A stretch of DNA of 29,943 nucleotides from an uncultured Thermococci archaeon (lineage in GTDB: Archaea; Methanobacteriota_B; Thermococci; Thermococcales; Thermococcaceae), in NCBI GenBank assembly GCA_964615185.1, contig CAZTOS010000022.1, positions 1 to 29,943 on the forward strand. The letters are read 5' to 3'. A program made the position numbers and the translations under genes. Below are positions 1,709 to 19,069 of this stretch, piece by piece (the stretch's first letter is position 1; every line of letters begins with the position of its first letter). The notes below the pieces were generated by a model. It did no database searches. It worked only from the letters and a program-made list of their open reading frames with translations, and was not told the DNA's origin.

Positions 1709-3769
1709 CTATGTGAACGTTTTGGAACGATTCCTGTGTACATAGTAGAAGTCCCCTTCGCTATCGATGTAAATGTAGTCCGGAGAGTACTTTGGTCCGC
1801 AATATAGGTTATGCCCATCCAGACGATACCACAAAGCTCTGGCAGCTTCAAGCTTGTTAAGCTCGTCAAGAATTGCCAAATTGCCAGGTTTAATCATGTT
1901 GAGAAGCCTTTGCATGTACGCATCACTTATCCGAAAACTTATATATGAAGCAAAAAATTCATAGCCAGTGATGAACTCTTTGGACACATCCTTAAGAGGA
2001 TATGCCGGGGTTACTTTAATCCCAAATCTTTCATAGAACTCTCTTAGAGCAAATTTATCCGGTCTATAGGGAATAAGCCCAAGGGTCATGAGCTCAATGG
2101 TTTCTCTGGAATATTTTTTAGGCCAATCTGATTCAAAAGGATAAATATGTTCTGGAACTTTAGGATAGGGATCAAGTCCAAGAACGTAGAATGCTTTGTA
2201 ACTGCTTCCAATTAATAGGGGGACTCTCCAAACTACCACGACTTCAGAATGGTCAAGCTTTCCACCATTCAGACTTGCTGGGATTTGAATTGCCCATGCC
2301 TTCAGATTGAAATCCATAAAGAGATTATTCATGAGGATTACCTCAGTTTCTCCATCATATCCACATATTCCTGATTCAAGGCTACCAACTATTGGCACAT
2401 CACGGGAATGGACATAGATATTTACAAAATATGCCACATGGAGCGGAGTCATGGAGTAAAATGGAACAGGCTTTTTATAGTAACTTAAGAGCTTACGCTT
2501 TGCGTCTCTATAAAAAAACTTCATAGCGCCATCAAGCTTTATTTTGTGATAACGGGTGAAACCCAAATTCGGATAGATGGCCTCATAAACCTGCAAGGGT
2601 TTAAACTCAGCGGCTTTTTTCCACATGTATTCAATCTGTGCCTTTGTGTATAACTGTGCATTCTGAAACCAGTATTTTCCTTTCCCATTAAAGTATATTG
2701 GGAATACCAGTGGATAATGTGCCAGCACGAGACTGGTGGATTTTTTATTTCCCTTTGCATCATAAGCTTCTATTGTTATGGTGTAGTTTCCCCACTTTAA
2801 TGGAAACTGAATAACATGCATGTAGCTGAGAGATTCTGTTTTTATTGTGATATTCCTTTTTTCTTTTCCATTTATGAGGATCCTGACTCCATGAGGAGGA
2901 TTTGCATTGTCTTCAATGCTCAGAGATATCTCAACTACACCTGACGGCAAGCTTTCGACTTTACCTTGCATCTCTGGAGGTATTTTGTCGTTCCTGTACT
3001 CTTTCTGAAACTCAATCCATGTTCCATATACCTCAGAAATCTCAAATTTATGTGCATTTTTTATAAACCACTCTCTATAGGTGGTATTTGTGGAAATCTC
3101 TTGCCTAATCAGCTTTATCCCAGAAACAAACTTAGATATCTCAGCGGGTTCAAATCCTCCAAAAAGTCCCTGCATGTTATCAATCGCATCGACAACATCT
3201 GAAGGTAAGCCAGAGAGAGATATACTTAGTTCTTTAACCAGCTGGATATATTCAGTTAGAGTTTTTACTTGATAAATCTGATGTGAGTTCTCTATTCCTG
3301 CTCTAATATGGGGAGGAAGGGTTGAGTAAACATTTACAAACTCCCTAACTTGAGTGTTAAAAATCTCCACCTTTTTGGAGAACTCCTCCAAGGCATATGG
3401 AGAATCAGAAAACAGAAATCTCACCATGTCGTCTCTAAGAGGGAGGGGTACGGAATTTAGGGTCTGGGTTACTTGCCAGCATAACTCTGCAAATTTTTCT
3501 GGGTCCGTAACCTCAACATCTTCAAAGAGAGTTGTGTGATATTTGTAGACGGGATACACTTCTTCTATTATTCTTAGTTCATGCTCGGTTATTTTCCCAT
3601 CATTCAAGAATCCCAAGTGTTTCGCAATATCTTCATAGTCTGATTTAAGTGAGTATGTCTTTACAGGCATGATAGATTTTTTAACTTGAGGAGGCCGAAA
3701 TGCAAGCATGAGACCAAGTATATATATCACAATCAGGATTAACCCAACTTTACGTAAGTCAATTTGCAT
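1709..3769 (-). CDS. Membrane-anchored/secreted 686-aa protein with an Ig-like segment and a putative transglutaminase-like Cys-His-Asp domain
   Basis: N-terminal hydrophobic helix (KVGLILIVIYILGLMLAF); beta-rich GNYTITIEAYDAKGN segment; GICGYDG...LDHSEVVVVW...LGLDPY spacing. The function is inferred. Confidence 0.7.
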   Translation of the reverse strand: MQIDLRKVGLILIVIYILGLMLAFRPPQVKKSIMPVKTYSLKSDYEDIAKHLGFLNDGKITEHELRIIEEVYPVYKYHTTLFEDVEVTDPEKFAELCWQVTQTLNSVPLPLRDDMVRFLFSDSPYALEEFSKKVEIFNTQVREFVNVYSTLPPHIRAGIENSHQIYQVKTLTEYIQLVKELSISLSGLPSDVVDAIDNMQGLFGGFEPAEISKFVSGIKLIRQEISTNTTYREWFIKNAHKFEISEVYGTWIEFQKEYRNDKIPPEMQGKVESLPSGVVEISLSIEDNANPPHGVRILINGKEKRNITIKTESLSYMHVIQFPLKWGNYTITIEAYDAKGNKKSTSLVLAHYPLVFPIYFNGKGKYWFQNAQLYTKAQIEYMWKKAAEFKPLQVYEAIYPNLGFTRYHKIKLDGAMKFFYRDAKRKLLSYYKKPVPFYSMTPLHVAYFVNIYVHSRDVPIVGSLESGICGYDGETEVILMNNLFMDFNLKAWAIQIPASLNGGKLDHSEVVVVWRVPLLIGSSYKAFYVLGLDPYPKVPEHIYPFESDWPKKYSRETIELMTLGLIPYRPDKFALREFYERFGIKVTPAYPLKDVSKEFITGYEFFASYISFRISDAYMQRLLNMIKPGNLAILDELNKLEAARALWYRLDGHNLYCGPKYSPDYIYIDSEGDFYYVHRNRSKTFT

Positions 3770-4342: not shown

Positions 4343-4419
4343 GCCGGGGTAGCCTAGCTCGGTAGGGCGGGGGACTCGTAATCCCCAGGTCCCGGGTTCA
4401 AATCCCGGTCCCGGCTCCA
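4343..4419 (+). tRNA. tRNA-Thr(CGT)
   Basis: Acceptor stem GCCGGGG/TCCCGGC, anticodon arm GGGGA-CT-CGT-AA-TCCCC, T-loop GGTTCAAATCC, discriminator T and encoded CCA. Confidence 0.95.
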
Positions 4420-4605
4420 TTTTCCCCCTAAGTATTCGTAGAATTTTTGTTTTGACTTGAATCTTTCATCATTCAGCAGAATAGCGACTGACATTTCGAC
4501 GAACTCTTGTACAGTCCAACCTCGTGAGCGTATTTCCTCAATAAAAGAAGCTGATAGCTTGATGTGTACCTGCTGATACTCGCCTCTTTTTCGAGTTCGA
4601 GCTAA
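4354..4605 (-). pseudogene. Int(N) fragment of a split SSV1/pT26-2-type tyrosine integrase overlapping the tRNA (attachment site); start codon lost
   Basis: Stop-free frame ARTRKRGEYQQVHIKLSASFIEEIRSRGWTVQEFVEMSVAILLNDERF...GGKWSRDRDLNPGPGDYESPALPS*. It has an RHH-like N-terminus and reads antisense through the tRNA 3' half. It is preceded by GTG-TAA-TTA rather than an intact start. Confidence 0.65.
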
Positions 4606-5363
4606 TTACACCAGCCCCCTATTTTTGGTGTACGGCATACTATCTGGACAACATTTTATGTAGTTTTAACCATCATTTATTCTTATTATGTTTTTTCTCT
4701 ATTCTATTTTTGAAAAATATGCGATCCCCTCAGAAGTACCATTTGAGTGTTTGTTACTACATAGGCATGCTTTATGAATGGTTATTACGATTACCTGACA
4801 AAATTATCCATGATACCTTTTGTTTTCCGAATACATGTCAGATGTTAGTTTTTCGCTCAATAAAAACTAATGGGGAACAGAATACTTTTTGTGTCAAGTT
4901 TCAATGACTAACAACAAAAATAAAGCAAGAATATTTGTGTGTTACACGAATGCGTTGCTATGCTTTTGGAAATTGTCCCTAATCTAATAATCTAACAAAA
5001 TTGAACTTTCTAAGTGCTCTATTTTCCCAAATCTTGACTTTTTATACTTTTTTGCAAGCTTTGTTTTGAGCATTCGTCAATAAAATTACTGTGTTAGTGA
5101 CTTTTTGACTTTTTATGCCACATTATTCAAAAACAAGGATTATTTAGTAGCTTTTAGAATTGAGTCAAAGACAAAACATGAATGGCGGAGAGAGGCAAAG
5201 GTGTCTCCCTCTTCCGCAGAGAAGCACAATATTATGTGTCACATATAGACACATCCAATATTTGCTCCCTTCATTTCATGTTTTCTCAAGTGATAATAAA
5301 ACTATTGAGCATGACCAAAAAGACTTTATCCCATTTTGAGTTATATAATGATTGGGATAGTAC

Positions 5364-8300
5364 ATGCCAAGGATTGAGATTGGCAATATACTAAAAAGTA
5401 CCAAATGGAAAGAGCCTTTTCTTGTAGAATTAATCCATGAACAAGATGGAATAATCAAAGTGGCTGGTTATTATCTCAATTCTCGTGAGCCAGATTATCT
5501 CATGATAACAGAAGCTGATTTAGAGGAAATAGAAATAATAAGCAATCCCTTGGACTTCAGGGCAGATCCTGAAAATGTTATGTTAGCGATAGAGAGTGAA
5601 AGATATCACTTTGCTTCTCTTTATGATCCTATACTTGCTGTGAGTATTTCAAAAATCGACCCTCTTCCATTCCAGATTGATGCTGTTTATAATTATATTC
5701 TCAAAAATCCTCAGATTAGGTTCCTTTTGGCGGACGATCCAGGTGCGGGAAAAACTATCATGGCGGGTCTTGTTATCAAAGAACTCAAACTAAGAGGACT
5801 TGCTGAGAGAATACTCATTGTGGCTCCAGGACATCTTGTAGAACAATGGAGACGTGAAATGAAGGAAAAGTTTCAAGAAGAATTCATAGTTGTCAAAAGG
5901 GAAATATACAAAAACACAACCGATGTATGGAGACGAGAGAAGCAGATCATTACCTCCATTGATTTTATCAAGCAAGAAGATATCAAAAAGAGTCTTGAAA
6001 CTGTAGATTGGGATTTAGTAATCGTTGATGAAGCTCATAAGTTGGCTGCTTATCGTTTTGGCAATAAACTCTACAAAACTAAGAGATATCGTGTGGGAGA
6101 GATATTGTCCCAAAATTCTACTCATCTGCTATTTCTCACAGCAACCCCACACAAAGGAGACCCAGAAAATTTCCGATTACTGTTAGATCTTCTTGTACCT
6201 GGCTTATTCTCTGACACTGAAATATTGTTGGAGGCTATAAGACGAAATGAAAATCCAATCCTGCTCAGGCGCATGAAAGAGGATTTGTATGATTTTGATG
6301 GGAAACCAATTTTCAAACCTCGTAAATCATATACTGCCCCATTTGAACTTTCAGAAGATGAAATGAAGCTCTACAATGAGCTATCTCTGTATATACGAGA
6401 TCAATATACTCTTTTTGAATCTACATCAAAAAGGCGAAACATTGCATTTGCCCTTGTTATACTCCAAAGAAGATTTGCCTCCAGTATATACGCACTCTTA
6501 CAATCGCTTAGAAGGAGAAAAGCTCGCTTAGAGGAATACCTTAGAAGTGGTAGAATAGAACTGAAAGAACCACAGCTCAATTGGGAGGAGTTACTTGCCC
6601 TCGAAGATGAAGAAGAACGCGAACGTTGGAAAGTAGAGCTTGAAATGGAAGGTTATACAGTTTCAAGGAGCAGAAAACAGATAGAAGCCGAGCTTAGAAC
6701 AATTGAAGAGCTGATCAGAAAAGCCGAAGAAATCATAGCAGAAGAACGTGAGACAAAGTTGAAGAAGCTGAAAACAACACTCGACGAAATCAAAAGAAAG
6801 CATGGAGAACGGGAGAAAATACTCATATTCACAGAGTTCAAAGACACCCTCGAGTATCTTGTTGATAAACTCCAAGAGTGGGGCTATTCAGTCACGTACA
6901 TTCATGGAGAAATGCCAATGGACGAAAGACTGCAACGTGAGAAGGACTTTAGAGAATGGGCACAAATTATGGTTGCCACTGAAGCTGCTGGAGAAGGTAT
7001 CAACTTGCAATTTTGCCATTTGCTGATAAATTATGATATTCCATGGAACCCAAACAGACTTGAACAGAGAATTGGTAGAGTGCACCGTTATGGTCAGGAA
7101 TATCCAGTGTATATTTTCAATTTCGTTGCTTCTAACACAAGAGAAGGAAAAGTACTCAAAAGCCTTTTAGAAAAGATTGAAAAAATCAGAGAGGCTCTTG
7201 GTGACAAAGTGTACGATGTTATTGGAGAAATTCTCGAAGGAGAAAAACTGTATCAGATATTATTAGAAGCAACAGCTAAAGCAGAAGATCTAGAACAATA
7301 TGTCAAGGAAATTGAACAGAGATTGAGCGATGAGAAGATTATTGAACGGATAAAAGAAGCACTTGGAGAAAGCCTTGTGACAAAACATTTTGACCTGAGA
7401 AAGATAAAGCAACTACTAGAACAGGCTGAGGAAAACAGATTGGCTCCAGAGTACCTTGAAGTGTTCTTCACGAAGGCTATGAAGAAGCTTGGTGCAAATA
7501 TACGAAAGAAAGAGGATAGAATCTACGCTATTGATAGGGTACCCCGTATTCTTCGTGAAATCGCTGAGAAGCAAGGATATGGAATTGTAGAACGATCCTA
7601 TAAGGCGATAACATTTGACAAGACACTTGCAAAGAAGAGAGACGATGTTGAGTTCATATCTTTTGGACATCCACTCTTTGATTCTCTGCTTCACTGGGTA
7701 CGTGAAAACTATCTAAAAGAACTCCAAAGAGGAGCTGTTTTCTATGATCCAAGCAATAAGCTACATGGTATAATCTGGTTCTTTGAGGGAGAAGTCAGAG
7801 ATGGCTTCAATATGACTGCAGGAAAGACTTTGGTAGCAATATATGACGATGGAGAGAATTTCGAAATTATTGATCCTAAGATAATCTGGGATCTCGAGCC
7901 AGCAAAAACCAATGAAGAAGTTCAAATCGAGTTCAAGAGAAGAGACGAAGCAATGAAGCATGCTCTCAAAGCTATTACTGAATATAAAGAGCAACTTCTG
8001 AAAGAAAGGAGAAGACAAGCAGAAATCAAAAAGAAATATGGGGAGAAATCATTGAGAAAACTCATTGATACCCTTGACTACAAGCTGGCTGAGTACGAGT
8101 TATATCCTCCAGAGGAGAGGAAACGTTATGCCCTCGTTATTAGGAACATAGAAGAAAGACTTGAGAGGTACAAGAGAGCTCTAAAAGAACTTCCAGAAAA
8201 GATAGCGAGGGAAACAAGTCTGACAGTAAGTCCACCAGTCTTCGTTGGAGCGATATACGTGCTTCCGAGAGGAGAGATGAGTGAAGATTTGGATATTGAA

Positions 8301-8663
8301 AAAATTGGAATGGAAGTTGTTATGGAGTATGAACGGAGGCAAGGAAGAAAACCTGAAGATGTCTCCAAGAAGAAGCTTGGATACGATATCTACTCAGAGG
8401 GGAATGGGGAGAAAAGGTACATTGAAGTAAAAGCAAGGGCTTATCTTGGCGATGTTGAACTGACGTGGAATGAGTATGTAACTGCAAAAAGACTGAAGGA
8501 CAAATATTGGCTCTATGTAGTTGCTTATGCCGCCGAGAAACCAAAGTTGTACCTCATTCGGAACCCTGCTGAGAGTTTGAAGGTCGTTGAGGAGTACGAG
8601 ATTAGATTTAGAGTCCCAGTCAATGAATGGAAGAGTAAAGGAGAAAAAGTTGATCTTAGTTAG
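5364..8663 (+). CDS. SNF2-family helicase with C-terminal DUF3883 PD-(D/E)xK nuclease-like domain (HmaA-like)
   Basis: Motif I LLADDPGAGKT, motif II VIVDEAH, motif III LTATP, motif V TEAAGEGINLQ, motif VI EQRIGRVHRYGQ; C-terminal GYDIYS...YIEVKA. Confidence 0.9.
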   Translation: MPRIEIGNILKSTKWKEPFLVELIHEQDGIIKVAGYYLNSREPDYLMITEADLEEIEIISNPLDFRADPENVMLAIESERYHFASLYDPILAVSISKIDPLPFQIDAVYNYILKNPQIRFLLADDPGAGKTIMAGLVIKELKLRGLAERILIVAPGHLVEQWRREMKEKFQEEFIVVKREIYKNTTDVWRREKQIITSIDFIKQEDIKKSLETVDWDLVIVDEAHKLAAYRFGNKLYKTKRYRVGEILSQNSTHLLFLTATPHKGDPENFRLLLDLLVPGLFSDTEILLEAIRRNENPILLRRMKEDLYDFDGKPIFKPRKSYTAPFELSEDEMKLYNELSLYIRDQYTLFESTSKRRNIAFALVILQRRFASSIYALLQSLRRRKARLEEYLRSGRIELKEPQLNWEELLALEDEEERERWKVELEMEGYTVSRSRKQIEAELRTIEELIRKAEEIIAEERETKLKKLKTTLDEIKRKHGEREKILIFTEFKDTLEYLVDKLQEWGYSVTYIHGEMPMDERLQREKDFREWAQIMVATEAAGEGINLQFCHLLINYDIPWNPNRLEQRIGRVHRYGQEYPVYIFNFVASNTREGKVLKSLLEKIEKIREALGDKVYDVIGEILEGEKLYQILLEATAKAEDLEQYVKEIEQRLSDEKIIERIKEALGESLVTKHFDLRKIKQLLEQAEENRLAPEYLEVFFTKAMKKLGANIRKKEDRIYAIDRVPRILREIAEKQGYGIVERSYKAITFDKTLAKKRDDVEFISFGHPLFDSLLHWVRENYLKELQRGAVFYDPSNKLHGIIWFFEGEVRDGFNMTAGKTLVAIYDDGENFEIIDPKIIWDLEPAKTNEEVQIEFKRRDEAMKHALKAITEYKEQLLKERRRQAEIKKKYGEKSLRKLIDTLDYKLAEYELYPPEERKRYALVIRNIEERLERYKRALKELPEKIARETSLTVSPPVFVGAIYVLPRGEMSEDLDIEKIGMEVVMEYERRQGRKPEDVSKKKLGYDIYSEGNGEKRYIEVKARAYLGDVELTWNEYVTAKRLKDKYWLYVVAYAAEKPKLYLIRNPAESLKVVEEYEIRFRVPVNEWKSKGEKVDLS

Positions 8664-9145
8664 CATTTATCTGGAGGAAACCAAAAACCAGCTTCAATAA
8701 GTTTCAAGCATATTTTTCGTTTTTCTTTACTTATAATTCCCAAGTTACACATAAGATCAAGTAATCCGATGGTGCCAATTTTCTCTAAGCCCAATTTGTC
8801 TGCGCTTTTTCTTGCCCGTCCATCATCAAGAACACACTTGTAAGGTATCTTCTTTTTGTAAAATTGTTGTCCAATCCAAAGAACAGCTAATTCTCCCTTA
8901 TGCAGAGAAGGAAACTTGTATTTTAGGTGAGTTAGTTCATCTTCAGGTACTTTGACTTTTTCGTAAAAACCATTGTAGTAGTCTCGTTCAATTTCTTGAA
9001 AGTTTTCATCGTAGGAAATTTCTTCAAAAACTTGTTCGGGGATTATCAATCTGTACCCTCGAAATGCTAATGATCTAAGTAATTCTGGGCGTTTGAGTTC
9101 GGTATAGAACGCTATCAAGACTGTGGAATCGAGAATAAGTCTCAA
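8660..9145 (-). CDS. PIN-domain (VapC-like, DUF3368-type) putative ribonuclease toxin
   Basis: LILDSTVLI, IPEQVFEEI, LHKGELAVL, VLDDGRARK..A..LGL..IGTIGLL and a GFWF tail. Confidence 0.85.
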   Translation of the reverse strand: MRLILDSTVLIAFYTELKRPELLRSLAFRGYRLIIPEQVFEEISYDENFQEIERDYYNGFYEKVKVPEDELTHLKYKFPSLHKGELAVLWIGQQFYKKKIPYKCVLDDGRARKSADKLGLEKIGTIGLLDLMCNLGIISKEKRKICLKLIEAGFWFPPDKC

Positions 9146-9163
9146 AATTTGATCCCTCCGAGT

Positions 9164-9760
9164 TTAGTAGCTTAGAGGTATTTTCATTTTTCTCTGTCTT
9201 AGAAGTCTCATGAATTCGGGAAGAGGTTTCCCTGCAATTTCGGCAGCTTTTGAAAGGCTGATTTTTCCTTTTTTGTATAATGAAATAGCTAAATTCACTC
9301 GTTTTTTGCGGATTTTATCCACTACACGAGATTCTTTGGTCATTTCTGGGAAAGTGAAATATATGTATGCAAGAAGTTCATCTTGGCTTAGGTCATTCAA
9401 GTCCTTCTTGATTTCTGATATCAGCTCAAGCAATTCTGGAGGGGACATTTTGAGCAATTCTTGGAAAAGGAGCTTGCCCTCTCTGGTTAGAGTAATTTCT
9501 TTGTTTTCAGATATCAACCCATAGCTTTTTAGATTCTCAAGTTGAACCTCGATGAGTTCACTATACGGTCCATAATGATGGGGCTCATATTGTGAAAGCT
9601 CACCCAGCCCTTCAATGTTATTTACGATCAGGAACATCTCCTTTTGTAACCAAGTCCTCCCTTTCACTGGCTTGTTATCGATACCCACCAGTAACAATAA
9701 GAGAGCCTGAAATGGATTCAATTCATTTGGAGACAGTACCTTCCTTTTTTTCTCCACCAT
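9164..9760 (-). CDS. Putative antitoxin: SocA/YwgA (Panacea-like) N-terminal domain fused to a UPF0175 HTH
   Basis: N-terminal GRTWLQKEMFLI...YEPHHYGPYSELI; C-terminal AISLYKKGKISLSKAAEIAG...EFMRLL. It lies directly upstream of the PIN gene. ATG at 9760 is preferred over 9769. Confidence 0.72.
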   Translation of the reverse strand: MVEKKRKVLSPNELNPFQALLLLLVGIDNKPVKGRTWLQKEMFLIVNNIEGLGELSQYEPHHYGPYSELIEVQLENLKSYGLISENKEITLTREGKLLFQELLKMSPPELLELISEIKKDLNDLSQDELLAYIYFTFPEMTKESRVVDKIRKKRVNLAISLYKKGKISLSKAAEIAGKPLPEFMRLLRQRKMKIPLSY

Positions 9761-9769
9761 TCTTCTCAC

Positions 9770-9801
9770 AAAACTTTATATGTTGGTACTATTTATAAAT
9801 A
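9770..9801. promoter_or_regulatory. Overlapping divergent TATA boxes
   Basis: AAAACTTTATATG about 25 nt before ATG 9805 (+), and palindromic TATTTATAAATA (9790-9801) about 30 nt before ATG 9760 (-). Confidence 0.55.
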
Positions 9802-9804
9802 CCT

Positions 9805-10983
9805 ATGGTGGACACTGTGGTAAAGGTGAAGATCATTTCTGTGGATGATGACACTTATTATGCTCACAAAAAGGTGAGAATTAGCAGTTCAAGAAGTTTT
9901 GAAACTCCAATAAAGGCAATTAGTCCTCAAAATCTTAGAAATGATGTTAGTCTCATGCATAATGAATTTGTGGATGAGATTTACATAGCTTTTACAAAAG
10001 AGCGTCTTGAAAATCTAATGAATCGAGGCTACGGTTCACTTACAAAAAATCTTAGAGAGCAGATTTCAAAACTTGATAATATTGACGACAAAGCAAATAT
10101 CTTGATACCAGCCTTACGTACTTCGAATGTTTCTAAAAAGGAACTTGAATTTTTAGCAGATATACAATCGTTTCCTATCTTTGATTTCTATGTTGTCCCA
10201 CTTGTAGAAAAAACAAAAAAGATGCAAATTACAGCGGAGCAGTATAAGGCTATTGTTGCCAACTTTATTGAAATCCTACAAACCCGCAATCATAAGGAAA
10301 TTATGGGAACATTGCCCCTTGGCTTTTCATACAATGAAATTCAAGACTTGCTGAATCTTTATCTTGACTTGGGAATAACTGCATTTTGTTTTGATTTTGA
10401 GGGCAAGGTTGCATTTTCAGTCTTTCCCACTCTTTCCATGGCTCAAGCCACACTTAGAAAAGAGGGGATTGACCCGTTCATACATGCTACTAATGTGAAT
10501 ATAGGCAAACCAAGCAAGAAAAGCAATGTAATTATAGCAAAGGATGTTTTGGCTTTTGGATTTGGAGTTGACTCCTTAGGAGATGACCATAAGCCTAAAG
10601 GAGGATCAAAAGAGGGAGAAACTCAAAAAACAAAAACTGACGAAAATCTGAGAATATTCAATAAGGAGGGATATTCTTACCATAGAGTATCCCCCACAGA
10701 TGTAGACCAAGTATATCCAGCTGATACAAAAATCCCCAAAGAATACTTGATAGAAGGTCGAAAAACGAAAAAACGGCAAGCTCAAAAAACCCTCAATTAT
10801 GAACAATTAGGGTTAGAAACGCTTAGAATAAGAGAGAAAATTGATGAACATGAAATTATACCGTATGTCTCCAGAAAACAGTACATCCGACAAGCTCCAA
10901 ACTTGATAGGAACTCTTCTTTCTGTTAGACATGTACAACTCGATGTCCCCTCATTCTTGAAGAATGTCAAGATTAGAAAATGA
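9805..10983 (+). CDS. Uncharacterised 392-aa alpha/beta protein; putative divergent tRNA-guanine transglycosylase (TGT/DpdA)-like TIM barrel
   Basis: N-terminal beta hairpin ending FETPIKAI (compare TGT ETPxFMP), IMGTLPLG, and IHATNV...[11 protein letters not shown] (compare HLLG...LGVDxFD). It lacks the DSGG and CxCxxC motifs. The ORF is certain; the fold is inferred. Confidence 0.5.
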
Positions 10984-10997
10984 AGGGAGGATGTAAA

Positions 10998-13760
10998 ATG
11001 GAAGACAAACGCCTTATTGAGGTTACTTTTCCGGTAAAAGAAGTTAGTGAAGAATCTGCAAGGGAAAAGAACATCCGTCATGGTCATATTTCTACGCTCC
11101 ATATTTGGTGGGCAAGACGACCTTTAGCATCATCAAGAACGACCAACTATGCCGCATTAGTCCCAGCCCCGAAAGATATTGAAGAACTTGAAAACAAGAG
11201 ACAATTTGTTGCTGAGCTCTCAAAATGGGAAAACTCTCTCAATGAGATAATTATTGAGAAGGCAAGGAGAGATATTTTAGAGGCATTCAAAGGAAGACGA
11301 CCAAGAATACTTGATCCATTTGCTGGTGGAGGGGCAATACCTTTAGAAGCCCTCCGTTTAGGTTGTGAGACCTATGCCTCCGACTATAATCCAGTTGCCG
11401 TGTTGATTCTCAAAGCTGTTTTGGAGTACCCTCAGAAATATGGAAGGAAAAAGAGAAGCAGAGGAGCTCTTGATCAATGGGTTTCACCTAAGGAACGGGA
11501 TGAAGAAGATAAGTACGATCTCGTTGCAGATGTCAAAAAGTGGGGAGAATGGGTACTTGAGGAAGCAAAGAAGGAACTTGAAAGGTTTTATCCAAAAGAT
11601 GAAAATGGATACATTCCAGTTGGGTATATATGGGCAAGAACAATAAAGTGTCAAAATCCCGCTTGTGGTGCTGAAATTCCACTGATGAGGCAGTTTTGGC
11701 TTGCAAAGAAGGACAAGAAGAAGGTAGCTCTTTACCCATATGTTGAAGGAAAAGATGTGAAGTTCAAGATAGTTGGCGATGGTTATGAGCCGATGCCAAA
11801 AGGGTTTGATCCATCAAAAGGTACAGTCAAAGGGGCTAAAGTAACTTGCCCAGTGTGTGGAATGACTCACGATGCGAACACTACAAGAAAGCTTTTCCGT
11901 GAGGGCAAAGCTGGTCAGAGGATGGTTGCTGTTGTTTTGTATCATCCAGAGAAGAGGGGAAAGGTGTACCGTTTGCCGACTGAAAAGGATATTCAAGCAT
12001 ACGAGGAGGCTAAAAGGTACCTTGAAGAGAAGAGGGCTAAGCTGATGGAAGAATGGGGTATTGATCCAGTGCCTGATGAGCCAACCCCAGAAGGGAGAGG
12101 TAGAGGTGCGGAGAGAGCGTTCTCGGTGAGGAACTATGATTTGAACACTTGGGGAGATTTATTCAATGATAGGCAAAAGCTTGCATTGATAACCTTTGTC
12201 GAGAAAGTTAGGAAAGCTTACGAGAAGATGCTTGAAGAAGGTTATGATAAAGAATACGCAAAGGCGATTGTGACGTATTTAGCTCTAATTATTGATATGG
12301 TAAGTGCTTTTACTAATGTCCTTGCAAGATGGGATAATACCTCAGAAGCTATAAAACAGCTATATTCTCGTCAAGTACTCCCAATAATGTGGGATTATCC
12401 TGAAGCTAATCCATTTAGTGGTTCTACGGGTAGTGTTATAACTGGGTTATCCTACTACCTTCAAGTTGTAGAACATTGTTCAATGACTTCAGAAATTCCA
12501 GCAGTAGTCTTACAAGCCTCAGCAACCTCACTCCCATTTCCAGATAACTATTTTGATGCTGTTTTTACTGATCCCCCCTACTATGATAATGTTCCCTATT
12601 CATACCTCAGCGATTTCTTCTATGTCTGGTTGAAACGTACAATTGGTGATTTATATCCAGAGTTGTTTGTAACTCCACTTACACCAAAGAGCAAGGAGCT
12701 TGTTGCTTACACCACTGATAAAGACTGGGAAGCTGCAAAGAGGTACTTTGAGGAGGGAATGAAAAAAGCTCTCCAAGAAATTTACCGCGTTCTCAAGCCA
12801 AACGGTATCCTTGTGCTTGTCTATGCTCATAAGACCACTGAGGGATGGGAAACGCTCATAAATTCTCTTCTCGATTCTGGACTTGTTCCAACGGCATCTT
12901 GGCCAATTCATACAGAGATGAAAAATAGGCTTAGAGCTAAAGAATCTGCCGCTCTTGCTTCGTCAATCTATATCGTCGCAAGAAAAATCAAAAAGCATGG
13001 AATTGGCTGGTTCGATGAGGTAAAGCGTGAGATGAAGAAAAAGCTCGAAGAAAAGCTTGATACTCTGTGGAAAGAGGGTATAAGTGGTCCCGACTTCTTC
13101 ATCTCAGCCATAGGCTCAGCCATTGAGGTTTTTGGAAAGTATGAGAAGGTACTTGACTATGAGGGCAACGAGATAAGAGGCGATAGACTGCTACAGCTTG
13201 TGAGGGACATAGTCAGCGACTATGCAATAAGGCAGGTACTCCATGAGGACATATCTTCTGAGCTTTCTCCACTAACTAAGTTCTATGTGCTCTGGCGCTG
13301 GACATACGGTGAAGCTAAAGCTCATTTTGATGAGGCAAGAAAGTTGGCAACGAGCGTTGGGCTTGATCTTGAAAAGGAGTGGAATAGGAGCTTTATCAAA
13401 AAGGAGAAGGAGTATATCTATGTCCTTGGACCGCATGAAAGGAAACTCAAGGAGATAAAGGGCAATGACCTAATTGATGTTCTTCACAAAGCTTTGTTGC
13501 TGTGGCAAGCTAACAAGAGAAGAGAAATGGTTGGGCTTTTGGTGGAGACGGGCTGGGGAGAGAAGGATGTTTTCTATAAGGTTGCACAGGCTATCAGCGA
13601 AGTTCTACCAAATGACAGTAAAGAGAAGAAGCTTCTTGAGGGTTTCCTTGCTGGTAAGAGCAATATATTGAGGGCTATTGAGAATGGGGATTACTCGATG
13701 TTTGTTGATAATGGTGAGCGGAAGAAGCAGGTAACTTTGGAAGAGTTTATTGAGAGGTAG
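10998..13760 (+). CDS. DUF1156-domain amino-methyltransferase (N6A/N4C) with Zn ribbon (COG1743; HmaB-like)
   Basis: N-terminal [13 protein letters not shown]-binding DPFAGGG, CQNPAC and CPVC Zn pairs, catalytic TDPPY. GGAGG RBS precedes ATG 10998. Confidence 0.92.
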
Positions 13761-14459
13761 TGTCTTTTTGTTCTTTTTCTATAATTTCTGGAAGATACAC
13801 TACTTGGAGTCTTGCTTGTGGGAATTCTTCTTTGAGACTGGTAAGTAGCTGGTTTGCTGTTGTTGAGAAGTTTTTGTCTATTGTGTAGAGAGTGCATTCT
13901 TCTTCTGACTTTATGGAAAAAATAAATGCTTGACTAAATATCTGAGCATCGTGATCATCCTTGAATTTTCCTCTTACACGATTGTATATCTCGATTGCAG
14001 TTTCTAATTCGTTATCACTTAGATTTATTACATTTGTTCTTGCACCTAACGAGTCTATTTTTGCTGTCTGTTCGATTATGAAGTCATTCATCTCTTTTAT
14101 TAGTTTGAAACGATTCTTTCTTAGAAGAAGCCTTTTTCTTCAGCAATTTGAATAATGTACTTGCAGAAATTTAGTATCTTAGGCTCGGTTTTTTCACATA
14201 TTTCAACTGTGAGCTTTTTGATGGTCTCTATTTCTTCATATTCGTCGGTAATTTGTAGTTTGTTGGCTTTGCTAATTGCTTTTTTGAGTTTTGTTAGGGC
14301 GCTGAAGGATTTTTCGTAGAAACTTTGCCTGAGTTCATGGTACACTGATTCCATAATATCCATTCTATGTTCTGCAAAGAATTTCTCAACAAGCTCGTGA
14401 TGAGGGTCTGTTTTCAGAATGCTGGCTATGAGGATGTTTGTGTCGACGAAGTTGGGCAT
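13747..14459 (-). pseudogene. PIN-domain nuclease (~235 aa) split by a frameshift near 14120-14140
   Basis: The 5' ORF (14121-14459) has FVDTNILIA and SVYHEL. The 3' ORF (13747-14091) has DDHDAQI and LYTIDKNF. The second frame is open back across the first ORF's stop, so adding one base joins them. Confidence 0.8.
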
Positions 14460-15184
14460 TCTTCACCCACCAATTTGAGAATTTCCTCCAATTCTTCGGG
14501 GCTTGCTGTTTTTTCGAGTTTAGGTGCCATCTCGACTATATCCTTCTTGAGGAGTTTTATGTGCTCTTCTCTTCCATTTAGAATAGCCAGTATCCTAAGG
14601 TTGAGCATCAGAATGTACAAGGAGAGTTCAACATCCTCCCAGTTTTCCAGCATTTTTTGGTACAGCTTTATGAGGAGAGAAATCCCTTGATCCAATGCAA
14701 GGTACTTTTCAAAATCTTCATCGGGGATATCATCATCGGATGCAATTTCGAGGATACTGTCTCTCATAGAGTTCAGTATACCTATCTGTCTTCTTATATC
14801 AGTCTTTAGGGAAGCTTTCAGTTCGTTTTTATTTATGATTTTGACTAATTCGTTTATCTCTTTCATTACATCTTTGAGTTCTTCATTGAATATTTTGAGT
14901 ATCTCTCCTTGGGCTTTTAGATAGTACATTCTATTAGCTTCTTTTGGCAAAACCTCAATTACTCGATTTAGAATCCTTCCTCTTTTTTCTTCTAATATTT
15001 GTTTTAGTCTCAAAAGTGCTCGAAATCTGTGGGTTTGATGTTTTTTCCTTACGTAGGGAATTGCTGAAAAAGAGGGGTGCACAGCATCTAATATTCCCAT
15101 AAGTAGGTCATCAGAATATTTTTCCACCAAAATATCAGGGAGAATCCATGATGTTTGTGCTGTTGCTGTTGTTCCCATGTTCAT
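14426..15184 (-). CDS. Uncharacterised all-helical protein, upstream partner (putative antitoxin) of the PIN gene
   Basis: Amphipathic Leu/Ile/Glu/Lys-rich helices. It overlaps the PIN start by 34 nt, with a GGTGA RBS before ATG 14459. TTTATAA about 27 nt upstream favours a start near 15184 rather than 15256. Confidence 0.7.
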   Translation of the reverse strand: MNMGTTATAQTSWILPDILVEKYSDDLLMGILDAVHPSFSAIPYVRKKHQTHRFRALLRLKQILEEKRGRILNRVIEVLPKEANRMYYLKAQGEILKIFNEELKDVMKEINELVKIINKNELKASLKTDIRRQIGILNSMRDSILEIASDDDIPDEDFEKYLALDQGISLLIKLYQKMLENWEDVELSLYILMLNLRILAILNGREEHIKLLKKDIVEMAPKLEKTASPEELEEILKLVGEECPTSSTQTSS

Positions 15185-15334
15185 CACTATCTGTTCTTGT
15201 GAATATGAACTTATAAATTTTACATATTGTGTAGTATGTAGTTTGTACTTGCACATCTGTATACTACGGTTTATATTGTATTCCTAAATAAAAGCTAAAT
15301 AAAAAGTTTTTATACTTCTGCTTGTTTTCATGTT

Positions 15335-16387
15335 TTGGTGGGACTTGTGAAAAGGGCAGCTTCGCTAGTTATGATGTTTTTGATAATTGGTGCTGTTATT
15401 ATGGGTGGATGTCTCCAGAAAGACAGTGTTGTTGTAGTTACTAAGACTTCTATGGAATCTTCATTTTCACGTAACAACATGAATACTAAGGAGAAATCTT
15501 CCAAAGATACGAATCTTGCAGGGCAAATTAGTGCAAGTAAGCCCAATATAACTTCCATAGACCTAAATCTAACTTCCCAACAGGAGTTGAGTTTGGGAGA
15601 GGAAATAAGAAAATTCACTCAGAGTTTGAATGAGAGCGTGAGAAAATACGGGTATGATAATCTTACGATAATCTTGGCAAGTAATATCTCGTCTCTCCCA
15701 AAGCTTCCTGAATGTGGTGAGATAGCCAGAATGGGAGAGAACCTTACTCAATATCAGGAAAGTGTTTCTAAGCTGAATGCTCTCCTGCATGAGTATAAAA
15801 ATCTTGGAGAGGGAATTTTAGAAGAGTATGGGATCTACGTACCGTATCTAAAGGATCGTGAGATAGACCAGTTTGTGAATACTTTAGACCCTAAAAGCAT
15901 GAGTGTGACCTGCAATCTAATCGAAGATTATAATGCGCTGATTGATGCAGCAAATCAAGTAGAACCTGAAAATAGGGAAACATACACTGAATTTTATCTT
16001 CGTTTGCTCATTGTAGGACTTGAAATAATTTTCTTCAAGGAAAACTTGGCTTATAAATTAGCATACACCTTTGTTGGAAAGTTCTTCTGGAAAACTGGAC
16101 TGTTTCATATTATCTACCGTTATGGCGGCAGTACTGCACTGAAAGTAGCTATGAGCGTTGCACATTGGGAAACGCGCGGTAGAATAAACAAGTATATTGA
16201 TGAATTTGGTGATGATCCACATAAAATTTCCTCATTGATATCAAACGTTAGCAATAGTACGTGGATTGAGGAACATACTGAATCACTCTTGGATTCACTT
16301 AAAAATGGCACAGAAAAAGTGAAAAACGTAACTTCTGGTATTTTCGATAAAATTAGCGATTTCTTTGGATCAAAGGATAATGGATGA
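15335..16387 (+). CDS. Predicted lipoprotein of unknown function
   Basis: KR plus hydrophobic stretch plus IMGGC lipobox, a Ser/Thr/Asn-rich linker, a helical body and a second hydrophobic region. The exact start is uncertain (15335-15347). Confidence 0.75.
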   Translation: MVGLVKRAASLVMMFLIIGAVIMGGCLQKDSVVVVTKTSMESSFSRNNMNTKEKSSKDTNLAGQISASKPNITSIDLNLTSQQELSLGEEIRKFTQSLNESVRKYGYDNLTIILASNISSLPKLPECGEIARMGENLTQYQESVSKLNALLHEYKNLGEGILEEYGIYVPYLKDREIDQFVNTLDPKSMSVTCNLIEDYNALIDAANQVEPENRETYTEFYLRLLIVGLEIIFFKENLAYKLAYTFVGKFFWKTGLFHIIYRYGGSTALKVAMSVAHWETRGRINKYIDEFGDDPHKISSLISNVSNSTWIEEHTESLLDSLKNGTEKVKNVTSGIFDKISDFFGSKDNG

Positions 16388-16441
16388 GGTATACCAAAAA
16401 GCAAAAATACTCTGGAGTACAAGGATGTAAAGGTGATGCTA

Positions 16442-19069
16442 ATGGATTTGAAGCCGTTCTATCATGTTGCGATTCCTCATAATGACATAAAGGAGGGGAA
16501 ATTTACTCTCGATACTTTTGCCGCCGATCTCTGGAGTGTGTACCAGAATAAAGGTCCTTTGGAGTACAGAAATCCTAAGCTATTCTGGGAGAGAACATAT
16601 CCCACAAGGGGACTGATAACTCTCCTTGAGTTAGCTGAGAAACGACTCCAAAAAGGCGTTGGAGATGCAGTAATACAGCTCCAGACACCTTTTGGTGGAG
16701 GTAAGACTCATTCTCTCATTGCTTTGTATCATAGGGCTCGTGAATGGAATGCTAATGTTGTTGTCCTTGATGGTACCGTTTTTGATGCTAAGGAAGTCAG
16801 ACTTTGGGAGGAAATGGAACGCCAGCTTACAGGTAAAGTAGAAAGGATGAGAGGAGATACATCACCGGGAAAGGCTAAGATAATGGATCTCCTTGAGGAA
16901 AAGAAGCCTGTCCTGATTCTAATTGATGAGCTCCTTGAATATATGACAAAAGCTGCAGGAATAAAAGTTGGGGAGACGACACTGGCTGATCAGACTCTGG
17001 CGTTTATTCATGAGCTTACTGAAGCTGTAAAGGCAACTGACAGAACATTTTTGGTGATGACTCTGCCTTCAAGTATTTTGGAGCATTATTCTGAAAAAGC
17101 TGAAGAGTACTTCCAAAAGCTTCAAAAAATCTCTGGTAGGGCTGAAAAAGTTTTCACACCCGTTCAGGATGAGGAAATTTATGATGTTGTCAGAAAGAGG
17201 CTCTTCAAGAGAATTGACGATGCCGAGATGGAGAGAATTGTAAAGAAGGTTGTGGAATACTTAGAAAAGGAGAATCTTATTCCTGAAGGAATAACTCCCT
17301 ATCAATATCGAGAGAGATTTCTAAGGAGTTATCCATTCCAGCCAGAAGTGATTGATGTCCTTTACAAAAGATGGGGAAGTCTTCCAAAGTTTCAGAGAAC
17401 ACGAGGTGTGCTTAGGCTTCTTGCAATAGTTGTGCATTCAAACATAGGTAAAGAATTACCCTTCATTCGTTTGGCTGATTTTGATTTAGGTATCAAGGAT
17501 TTGAGAGATGAATTAGTTAGTGTAATTGGTGAAAGCAGGTATTACTCAGTCCTCGATGCAGACATTCTTTCTCCTGATTCTGGGGCTAAGAGGGTTGATA
17601 GGGAACTCGGAGAGTCATATGTACATTATCGTATTGGTACAAAAGCTGCAACGGTAATTTTCATGTACTCTTTCAGCAGTGGGGAGCTAAAAGGTGCTAC
17701 TACAAAGGAGATAAAGCTTTCCACAGCAGACCTTAGATATCCAAGTAGCATTGTGGGGGATGCAATTCTTATGCTAAAGGACAATTTACTCTACCTCCAC
17801 TATAGGGATGGCAGGTACTTTTTCAGCCTTGAACCAAGTCTGAATAAGCTTTTACTTGATGAAATGAACAATGTAACTGAAGAAGAAATAGAGGAGCTTG
17901 AGAGGAGTTTATTGAAAAGTGAAGTGCCTGGAAGGTACTTTAGACCGTATTTGTGGCCTAAAGACTCAAGGGATATTCCTGATAATGATCCTACCCTAAA
18001 GTTAGTTGTTCTCAGGGAATATGACTCAGAGAAGGTTTATCAAATTCTGAATTCATCTGGAAGTACAGCAAGGGTGTACAAGAATACCCTCATTTTCCTC
18101 GTACCTCGTGAAACTGAAAGAGTAGACTTCAACAGAAAAGCTCGTAAGTACATTGCTTGGGAGAGGATAAAGCAAAAATCTGATAGAGGACAACTTGAGC
18201 TCACGAAAGAGCAAAAGGAAGATGTGAGACTCAATGTCAAAAAGGCAAAAGAAGACGTCAAACAAAAGATTTCGGAGTTGTATAGAGTAATTTTGTTGCC
18301 GACGAAACAAAGGTACGAGGAACTTGATCTCGGAATGAAACCTGTGGGAGAAAAGAGCACAATTGAGAAGAGAGTTTATGAAAAGTTGAAGAGCGAAGGA
18401 AAGCTAATTGAAACTATGGCACCTATTGTCATTGAAAAGAAGTATTTAGACGATAAAGAGTACATTTTTACGGATCTTCTCTATGAGAGTTTTCTGAAAA
18501 CGCCTGGGATGCCTCTTGTAAAAAGCAAGAAAGTTCTGGCAGATGCAATAAAGGAGGGGGTAAAAAGAGGAATGTTTGGTCTTGGATATGTAAAAGATGA
18601 GATTATTAGATGCGAGTATTTGGGAGAAGGTGTCTCTCCAACGTTTGAAGAGGGAGAAGCAATAATCAGAAAGGATGTTTGTGAAAGTTTGAGGGTTTCA
18701 AAAGAGGAAGAAGGAGAGCCTACTGAGAAAGAAGGTACGGGAGTTTCAGAAAAAGAAGACGAGTCTGAGGTAACTAAAAAGAGATCTCCAGAAAGAGAGG
18801 GAGAGCCTGTATCATCTGGGAGAGTTGACACAGGAACTACCCATACAGAGGAAACATTTGAACAGCTTGACTTGAGGCTCGAGCTCGGTTCTGGAGTTGG
18901 TGGATTGCGTACGGTTATCAGTGTACTGAATTTCCTAAGAAATAGGTTCGATGACATTGAGGTTACAATTGAAATAAAGGCAAGAAATGGAAAATTGACA
19001 AAGAGGGAGTACGAGGAGAAGGTGTTAGAGGCATTGGAAATGGCAGGTATCAAGGTCGGGCATAAGTAG
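16442..19069 (+). CDS. DUF499-domain AAA+ ATPase (COG1483; HmaC-like)
   Basis: N-terminal PHNDI...FAADL, Walker A TPFGGGKTHS, Walker B LILIDEL, SYPFQPE and FQRTRGVLRLLA. GGTGA RBS favours ATG 16442. Confidence 0.92.
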   Translation: MDLKPFYHVAIPHNDIKEGKFTLDTFAADLWSVYQNKGPLEYRNPKLFWERTYPTRGLITLLELAEKRLQKGVGDAVIQLQTPFGGGKTHSLIALYHRAREWNANVVVLDGTVFDAKEVRLWEEMERQLTGKVERMRGDTSPGKAKIMDLLEEKKPVLILIDELLEYMTKAAGIKVGETTLADQTLAFIHELTEAVKATDRTFLVMTLPSSILEHYSEKAEEYFQKLQKISGRAEKVFTPVQDEEIYDVVRKRLFKRIDDAEMERIVKKVVEYLEKENLIPEGITPYQYRERFLRSYPFQPEVIDVLYKRWGSLPKFQRTRGVLRLLAIVVHSNIGKELPFIRLADFDLGIKDLRDELVSVIGESRYYSVLDADILSPDSGAKRVDRELGESYVHYRIGTKAATVIFMYSFSSGELKGATTKEIKLSTADLRYPSSIVGDAILMLKDNLLYLHYRDGRYFFSLEPSLNKLLLDEMNNVTEEEIEELERSLLKSEVPGRYFRPYLWPKDSRDIPDNDPTLKLVVLREYDSEKVYQILNSSGSTARVYKNTLIFLVPRETERVDFNRKARKYIAWERIKQKSDRGQLELTKEQKEDVRLNVKKAKEDVKQKISELYRVILLPTKQRYEELDLGMKPVGEKSTIEKRVYEKLKSEGKLIETMAPIVIEKKYLDDKEYIFTDLLYESFLKTPGMPLVKSKKVLADAIKEGVKRGMFGLGYVKDEIIRCEYLGEGVSPTFEEGEAIIRKDVCESLRVSKEEEGEPTEKEGTGVSEKEDESEVTKKRSPEREGEPVSSGRVDTGTTHTEETFEQLDLRLELGSGVGGLRTVISVLNFLRNRFDDIEVTIEIKARNGKLTKREYEEKVLEALEMAGIKVGHK

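Follow-up and report, generated by a model that had tools for sequence, protein, structure and literature searches.

We describe here a gene of a Thermococci archaeon whose product is a (beta/alpha)8 barrel of the tRNA-guanine transglycosylase (TGT) superfamily, and which lies beside genes for an antitoxin-like protein and a PIN-domain RNase. The gene was studied within a 29,943-nucleotide stretch of DNA, referred to below as the window. Antitoxin, PIN RNase and barrel very probably form a mobile archaeal cassette of the toxin-antitoxin type. Our preferred reading, to which we assign a probability of about 0.45, is that the barrel is a non-catalytic nucleic-acid sensor that acts as the third cassette subunit and gates the PIN toxin. 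We found no description of the barrel, antitoxin and PIN combination in the literature searched, which consisted mostly of freely accessible papers and included PMC12839542 minus its supplement, where such neighbors might be listed. Our data point to a previously undescribed three-component toxin-antitoxin defense module built on an unnamed protein family.

An unnamed family with the TGT fold

The barrel is 392 residues long and is encoded at positions 9805..10983 of the plus strand. The motifs quoted for this open reading frame in an earlier note on the window are present as described, DSGG is absent, and C195 is the sole cysteine. That note called a TGT-like barrel by eye, and structural comparison bears this out. 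All of the top 50 Foldseek matches listed for the AlphaFold model (pLDDT 92.8) are tRNA-guanine transglycosylases (best E 9e-9), and VIA-align superposes 319 residues on the archaeosine TGT 1iq8 (Z 23.8, rmsd 3.8). The other superfamily members compared score 22.5 (bacterial TGT), 21.2 (QTRT2), 15.9 (Cap10) and 15.8 (DpdA), and the best unrelated barrel, at Z 12.3, falls below every one of them. A profile of the barrel family aligned to 22 TGTs runs end to end, with a probability of 93% in global mode and 39% in local mode. Sequence searches of solved structures with the barrel protein and with profiles of 8 and 119 rows returned nothing meaningful, and a viral fold library yielded weak generic barrels only. 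Homology to TGT is visible only through the fold and the global profile alignment.

The barrel itself belongs to no Pfam, PADLOC or NCBIfam family. When 119 members were compared with Pfam at E 0.1, PF01702 TGT, DpdA and the Beta protein were unmatched among the 25 of 37 families listed, each of which was matched by one barrel member only. PADLOC left DpdA unmatched by the same 119 sequences and gave three unrelated single matches, and NCBIfam gave nothing near its cut-off for the five members compared. The family is sizeable: at E<=0.001, 289 of the representatives at 50% identity are relatives, most of them 360-425 residues long. It is present in the three GTDB phyla searched and in Archaeoglobi and haloarchaea, and the nearest Atlas clusters are 91-100% archaeal. 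Purifying selection is strong (dN/dS 0.06-0.13 in 7/7 close homologue pairs), and the family is therefore being maintained.

Replacement of the canonical active site

The absence of canonical catalytic and zinc motifs noted earlier is confirmed by the profile alignment and by counts over 119 members (alignment A2: the query and 118 full-length sequences from 156 retrieved, with fragments and a 95%-identical copy excluded). The TGT nucleophile, the last Asp of GxDxFD (Asp256 in DpdA), aligns to G259, which is Gly in 114/119 members; D256 of the barrel corresponds to the first Asp of that motif and not to the nucleophile. The base-recognizing Asp after strand 4 (Asp130 in DpdA) aligns to P132 (Pro in 116/119), the Gln after strand 5 to P171 (Pro in 111/119), the TGT Gly-Gly to D197/F198, and the Gly after strand 7 to N230, which is invariant (119/119). 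A DSG[GA] motif occurs in one member of 119. Its acid/base position is likely residue 103, a register set by eye where the profile alignment is unreliable; this residue is Ala here and acidic in 44/119. The CxCxxC zinc motif is found in 0/119 members, and the zinc-site His position is L330 here and Phe in most members. The Tyr/His on strand 7 of TGT is retained.

Three aspartates are given as invariant in TGT and DpdA in the accessible part of PMC10164549. Judged from the aligned residues, the barrel cannot be counted among the transglycosylases of known chemistry, because the Asp residues invariant in TGT and DpdA, the base-binding residues and the zinc residues are all replaced. Recognition of deazaguanine in the TGT manner is likewise disfavored, since Pro, Pro and Asp/Phe occupy the guanine-recognizing positions. 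The earlier note had singled out the Asp residues of VDSLGDD as possibly lining the barrel pocket. Two of them, D260 and D261, are not conserved: Asp is found at position 260 in 27/119 members and is outside the six commonest residues at 261.

The residues that are conserved in the family are E58, D127, P132, D197, N230, D247, G259, H262, R283, Y290, Y292, N331, E338 and K358, and the basic residues kept include K235, K246, R283, K287 and K358. By secondary structure, D197, N230 and H262 would lie close to where strands 6-8 end, with D197 and N230 at the ends of adjacent strands, and these two residues could form a new active site. Position 197 is Asp in 54/55 paired loci and Asn in 15/119 members overall; H262 is retained in 39/55 paired loci.

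The barrel thus resembles the TGTs (1iq8, the bacterial enzyme and QTRT1) and DpdA (7ui4) in having an N-terminal hairpin and C-terminal helices. It differs from them in its Gly at the nucleophile, its Pro at the base-binding Asp and Gln, its lack of DSGG and zinc, a basic hairpin after strand 7, and its PIN and antitoxin partners. DpdB, DpdC and QueC are absent among the recurring barrel neighbors, a set that was clustered and scanned in part.

The antitoxin-like and PIN genes

Two genes on the opposite strand, spanning 8660-9769, went unmentioned in the earlier note. The one nearer the barrel (9164..9769, minus strand) encodes a 201-residue, two-part antitoxin-like protein in which an acidic winged helix resembling the DarG C-terminal domain is fused to a UPF0175 helix-turn-helix. 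The UPF0175 part is C-terminal (Pfam E 3e-11) and is present in 21/27 of the winged-helix partners tested. The protein has a profile match to chain B of 7yk3 (E 3e-4), and positions 156-307 of the 329-position PADLOC DarG profile also match it. Its model (pLDDT 94.7) superposes best on 7yk3 in VIA (Z 11.1, rmsd 3.6, 150 aligned residues; next 9.2 over 82), a Z that is only moderate because the protein is helical. The DarG C-terminal domain is a toxin-binding domain according to the 7yk3 title, and a DNA mimic according to the accessible part of PMC13368585; the helix region 56-83 of the antitoxin-like protein is acidic across the family. The acidic winged helix of the barrel's partner thus matches the toxin-binding domain of DarTG (7yk3) over 150 residues. 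Unlike DarTG, the trio lacks both a macrodomain and an ADP-ribosyltransferase; its winged helix is joined to UPF0175 and has a TGT-fold barrel as predicted client. Pfam SocA_Panacea is matched by 0/27 winged-helix partners at E 0.01.

Directly behind this gene, in the arrangement of a type II toxin-antitoxin pair, lies the gene for a 161-residue DUF3368-type PIN-domain RNase (8660..9145, minus strand). It matches PADLOC PDC-S70 at E 3e-15 and Pfam DUF3368 at E 4.5e-6, slightly short of the family cut-off. The acidic active-site residues are conserved over 67 aligned rows (D6 in 59, E42 in 65, E85 in 67 and D107 in 65, with D/E108 kept), and by this measure the active site is intact. The pair has both domains of the DUF3368 PIN/UPF0175 pair (PDC-S70) in the same antitoxin-toxin order, and differs from it in an extra N-terminal antitoxin domain of ~150 residues and in a third gene that is almost always present.

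The antitoxin-like and PIN genes are transcribed away from the barrel across a 35-bp divergent promoter region (9770..9804) with back-to-back TATA-like boxes. One box begins 30 nt before each of the two divergent start codons, a distance which, given the usual spacing of archaeal promoters, suggests leaderless transcripts. A sigma-70 promoter scan, using a model not suited to archaea, gave chance-level results.

A predicted complex and a PCNA-binding-like tail

Prediction of the three-chain complex gave a score of 0.76, compared with 0.34 for the best control, which is the value obtained with the antitoxin replaced. Contacts agree between runs to at least 84%, and pLDDT is at least 84 for the barrel and its partner. 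This mark was reached by 116/157 solved pairs and 2/215 mismatched pairs, a calibration that is only rough for a three-chain job. The predicted interface is mostly between barrel and antitoxin. The winged helix would bind the barrel at loops 173-178, 201-212 and 235-239 and at its C-terminal tail (364-392), using antitoxin residues 12-22, 50-65, 71-83 and 105-116, and the charges fit, with basic K201, K235 and K238 on the barrel facing the acidic 56-83 region of the partner. The model supports binding of the antitoxin by the barrel.

Contacts between PIN and barrel are few in the model, involving PIN residues 73, 76-77, 93 and 118. They bear on an alternative that we regard as improbable, namely that the barrel is a targeting subunit resembling QTRT2 that presents tRNA or structured RNA to PIN, with the antitoxin serving as bridge and lock. 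PIN toxins often cut tRNA, and the folds nearest to the barrel are those of tRNA enzymes and not DpdA (Z 23.8, 22.5 and 21.2 compared with 15.8). The predicted PIN contacts, together with the 0.34 still scored when the antitoxin is replaced, would also suit such a role. However, the zinc site of TGT and the loop that follows strand 3 are lost or shortened, there are loci without PIN (G041 and L183, below), and the tail described next points to DNA.

The C-terminus of the barrel carries a PCNA-interacting-like motif, Q378-x-x-V381-x-x-F384-L385 (10936..10959, plus strand). It is degenerate with respect to the PCNA-binding consensus QXXhXXaa given in the accessible part of PMC4929162, h being Val and the second a being Leu. 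When the motif is relaxed, it is found in the last 20 residues of 25/119 barrels, compared with 1.4 expected from internal windows; 10 of these 25 add a further hydrophobic residue, and the genome background is 17/1195 long open reading frames. A looser pattern is found in 49/119 barrels versus 72/1195 long open reading frames. In the 55 paired loci the relaxed motif occurs 5 times and the looser pattern 13 times. The motif is optional in the family, and PCNA binding is putative. In the complex model the antitoxin encloses the hydrophobic residues of the tail motif with residues that are variable across the family.

Linkage of the three genes across genomes

Loci were gathered by the barrel alone, which was found in 14 of 133 genomes from the window's phylum and in 3 of 251 from a second one; further loci came from the best 80 of 138 metagenome matches and from single scans. 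Among the resulting 75 barrel clusters (90% identity), 62 have both the winged helix and PIN within 1.7 kb. Six have one partner and lie at contig ends, and seven have too little flank; no cluster of the 75 with 1.3 kb on both sides is without partners. Related genomes are not independent counts in these tallies. Because the partner profiles had been built from the original loci, a fresh set was tested, comprising 17 loci in 301 genomes of a third phylum. Eleven of these have both partners and three the winged helix only, while two lie at contig ends and one is a weak unrelated match. Of the two partners, the winged helix is found more consistently: in 14/14 informative strong independent loci, as against 11 for PIN, and also in G041. 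Gene order varies (45 tandem, 12 divergent and 4 barrel-first, with convergent genes in L176 and L181), while the set of genes stays the same. In the reverse search of the 133 genomes, the 13 with a winged helix of at least 144 bits are the same 13 that have a barrel of at least 56 bits. That search also gave weaker winged-helix matches, namely G041, other modules, and in G118 a truncated remnant.

Several loci depart from the full trio. In L183 a barrel and winged helix lack a nearby PIN, and at L129:4165-7364 (G041) a winged helix and a very divergent barrel homologue, again with no PIN, converge on a DUF4145 gene. The barrel gene is split next to intact partners in L035, L048 and L181, and the barrel therefore seems unnecessary for keeping PIN silent. 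In L171 an intact barrel gene lies beside a split winged-helix gene, which may be an assembly error. The barrel of Haloarcula plasmid CP050016 (L188:8953-10167) is intact with neither antitoxin nor PIN within 9 kb; it has D197N, lacks K235 and R283, and carries a strong PCNA-like tail. Several of its nearest relatives also have Asn in place of D197. At L140:7909-12831 (G118) a truncated winged-helix gene stands by DUF365-like and DUF1156 genes without PIN or barrel, and this locus is a decayed copy of the cassette.

The sole match among viral contigs is L099:7665-9937, where the full trio, barrel first, shares a 32-kb contig of a viral collection with a DNA methyltransferase-like gene. The haloarchaeal barrel as query found no match among viral contigs, and the barrel found none among phage records. 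A parallel module (L126:3912-6671, L127:1068-3818, L128:3386-6262 and L120) combines a related winged helix with PIN_3 (in L128, a membrane-like gene), a 120-137-residue nuclease-like gene and a 421-441-residue protein that resembles a barrel. The 421-441-residue protein is fused to Ser/Thr kinases in bacteria. This second barrel-like family, found near weaker winged-helix matches, gave no profile alignment to the barrel family or to TGT.

The Hma locus around the trio

The window contains a complete Hma core of helicase, methyltransferase and ATPase, with the trio between hmaA and hmaB. The accessible parts of PMC12839542 and PMC7641849 describe Hma as a BREX-related system centered on DUF499. 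HmaA (5364..8663, plus strand) is an SNF2 helicase with a C-terminal NOV_C domain (Pfam; PADLOC HmaA E 3e-206), HmaB (10980..13760, plus strand; likely start 10998) is a DUF1156 adenine methyltransferase (PADLOC HmaB E 4e-145), and HmaC (16433..19069, plus strand) is a DUF499 ATPase (PADLOC HmaC E 2e-129). The stop codon of the barrel overlaps the first ATG of hmaB (10980-10983), so the two genes may share a transcript; a further in-frame ATG, at 10998, is preceded by GGAGG at a distance of 7 nt. On the sequence, co-transcription of barrel and hmaB is plausible.

The earlier note saw the barrel as positioned for co-transcription with the methyltransferase, but a functional link between the two finds no support. 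An HmaB homologue is near only 4/75 barrel clusters, and lies directly downstream on the same strand in two clusters, 58 representatives having at least 400 nt downstream. The idea that the barrel cooperates with the HmaB methyltransferase, whether as a base-exchange enzyme or as a reader of deazaguanine, would draw on its TGT fold, on the PCNA-like motif with which HmaB likewise ends, and on the stop-start overlap seen here, with the same gene order in L017. The genome also encodes an archaeosine TGT, so a deazaguanine base may be available. We nonetheless consider this idea very unlikely indeed: the three aspartates reported as invariant in TGT and DpdA (accessible part of PMC10164549) are not kept, the four HmaB-linked barrels fall in a single five-member clade (SH-aLRT 94 in a quick tree), and among seven genomes of the same genus two have a distant DUF1156 methyltransferase and none has the barrel. 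The single clade also weakens a case for repeated independent embedding in Hma loci.

The trio is optional local cargo in the Hma locus, and the barrel is not a core gene. The accessible part of PMC12839542 names PIN, HEPN and OLD-ABC modules, and not a TGT-fold protein, as backup effectors of Hma/BREX-related systems, and the TGTs it mentions belong to a separate HerA/FtsK system. The DUF499-linked barrels of G064, G052 and G076 come from a distant clade, of which the tree includes G052 and G076; its wider neighborhoods adjoin DUF499, DUF1156 and DUF365 genes. Other barrels lie within or beside restriction-modification operons, type I among others, or on likely integrated elements, and many copies sit among housekeeping genes. 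This wider context is undersampled, because flanks of 3 kb on each side are available for only 15 representatives.

Other features of the window deserve mention. A tRNA-Thr(CGT) gene (4343-4419, plus strand) is followed by a stretch (4420-5363) with no open reading frame of 80 residues before hmaA, and the island starts ~0.9 kb past the tRNA gene. A search for repeats of the tRNA-Thr end gave none above 13 nt, and hence no attachment site. The locus has no listed RNA holder. The C-terminus of HmaB is PCNA-binding-like (Q-V-T-L-E-E-F-I), one of 17 such tails among 1195 long open reading frames, and the methyltransferase may follow the replication fork. A second PIN gene (13747-14459, minus strand), split by a frameshift near residue 120, lies behind a gene for a 276-residue protein (14426-15256, minus strand). 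An intact homologue of this pair (242 and 240 residues) is found in L126, and the pair is more cargo between hmaB and hmaC. Directly before hmaC, a 350-residue protein with a lipoprotein-like signal (GGC) is encoded at 15335-16387 (plus strand) and has no Pfam, PADLOC or NCBIfam family. For a 686-residue protein (1709-3769, minus strand), Pfam gives only a weak match (E 0.004), with a phage tail tube family.

A sensor or a second toxin

If the barrel is a sensor that gates PIN, its basic loops would form a surface for nucleic-acid binding that was inherited from TGT. The acidic winged helix would plug this surface as a nucleic-acid mimic, as the DarG C-terminal domain does on DarT, while the UPF0175 end of the antitoxin would hold PIN. 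Invader nucleic acid would compete for the barrel and so alter its grip on the antitoxin; in some members it may be met at PCNA-loaded replication forks. The freed PIN would then cut RNA, leading to cell arrest. This reading is favored by the near-constant linkage of barrel to winged helix and PIN (62/75 clusters), by the precedent of QTRT2, a non-catalytic TGT fold according to its PDB title, and by defense or mobile settings that include Hma, DUF499/DUF1156 and restriction-modification genes. Against it stand G041 and L183, where with no PIN nearby there is nothing left to gate, and the intact Haloarcula plasmid copy without partners. Likewise, the model has few PIN-barrel contacts, the antitoxin residues that accept the tail are variable, and many copies lie among housekeeping genes.

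The sensor reading is also challenged by D197 and N230, which, as noted above, could form a new active site. The main alternative, possible but doubtful, is that the barrel is a second toxin that attacks nucleic acid with a rebuilt site (D197, N230, H227 and H262), and that the antitoxin is two-headed, its DarG-like mimic blocking the barrel and its UPF0175 end blocking PIN. Such a toxin might, for example, excise bases or block replication, steered to DNA by PCNA. The excess of PCNA-like tails (25/119 against 1.4 expected) would be in keeping with this, as would the greater constancy of the winged helix than of PIN (14/14 vs 11 loci, plus G041) and the presence of Asp at 197 in 54/55 paired loci but Asn in the partner-less haloarchaeal barrel. 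SocB, a replication inhibitor, binds the sliding clamp. It is neutralized by a related domain, SocA (accessible part of PMC8832971), and the client of the DarG C-terminal domain is a toxin that modifies DNA (7yk3 title; accessible part of PMC13368585). On the other hand, H262 is kept in only 39/55 paired loci, position 197 is Asn in 15/119 members, the association of D197N with missing partners is a single locus, and in L171 the barrel is intact beside the split, possibly misassembled, winged-helix gene.

The sensor reading remains our preferred one. Cap10 acts by binding. Cap10 of type IV CBASS (9ntn) and QTRT2 (6fv5) are, by their PDB titles, TGT-fold proteins of this kind, and Cap10 was solved bound to another immune protein. 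The barrel described here differs from type IV CBASS in having no cyclase or QueC partner, and its partners do not have a glycine-rich N-terminus (at least two Gly in the first eight residues in 2/55 and 0/55).

Implications

A bolder synthesis, which we think rather unlikely as a whole, is that the trio is an archaea-wide immune cassette in which the TGT fold, its pocket rebuilt around D197/N230, serves as a DNA sensor or toxin that rides on PCNA. One head of the antitoxin, the DarG-like mimic, would plug the barrel mouth and hide the clamp-binding tail, the other end would hold PIN, and both arms would be released when a virus or plasmid replicates.

Archaeal defense systems and their triggers are thinly described, and the barrel adds an unnamed family of 289 clusters at 50% identity with a near-fixed three-gene membership and a predicted complex. 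Complete genomes from the family to which the window belongs also carry barrel members, which puts gene deletion, toxicity assays and pull-downs within reach. The cassette would broaden the roles of the TGT fold beyond base swapping, to sensing or toxicity, would extend DNA mimicry of the DarG type to a new client, and suggests the sliding clamp as a point of immune surveillance in archaea.
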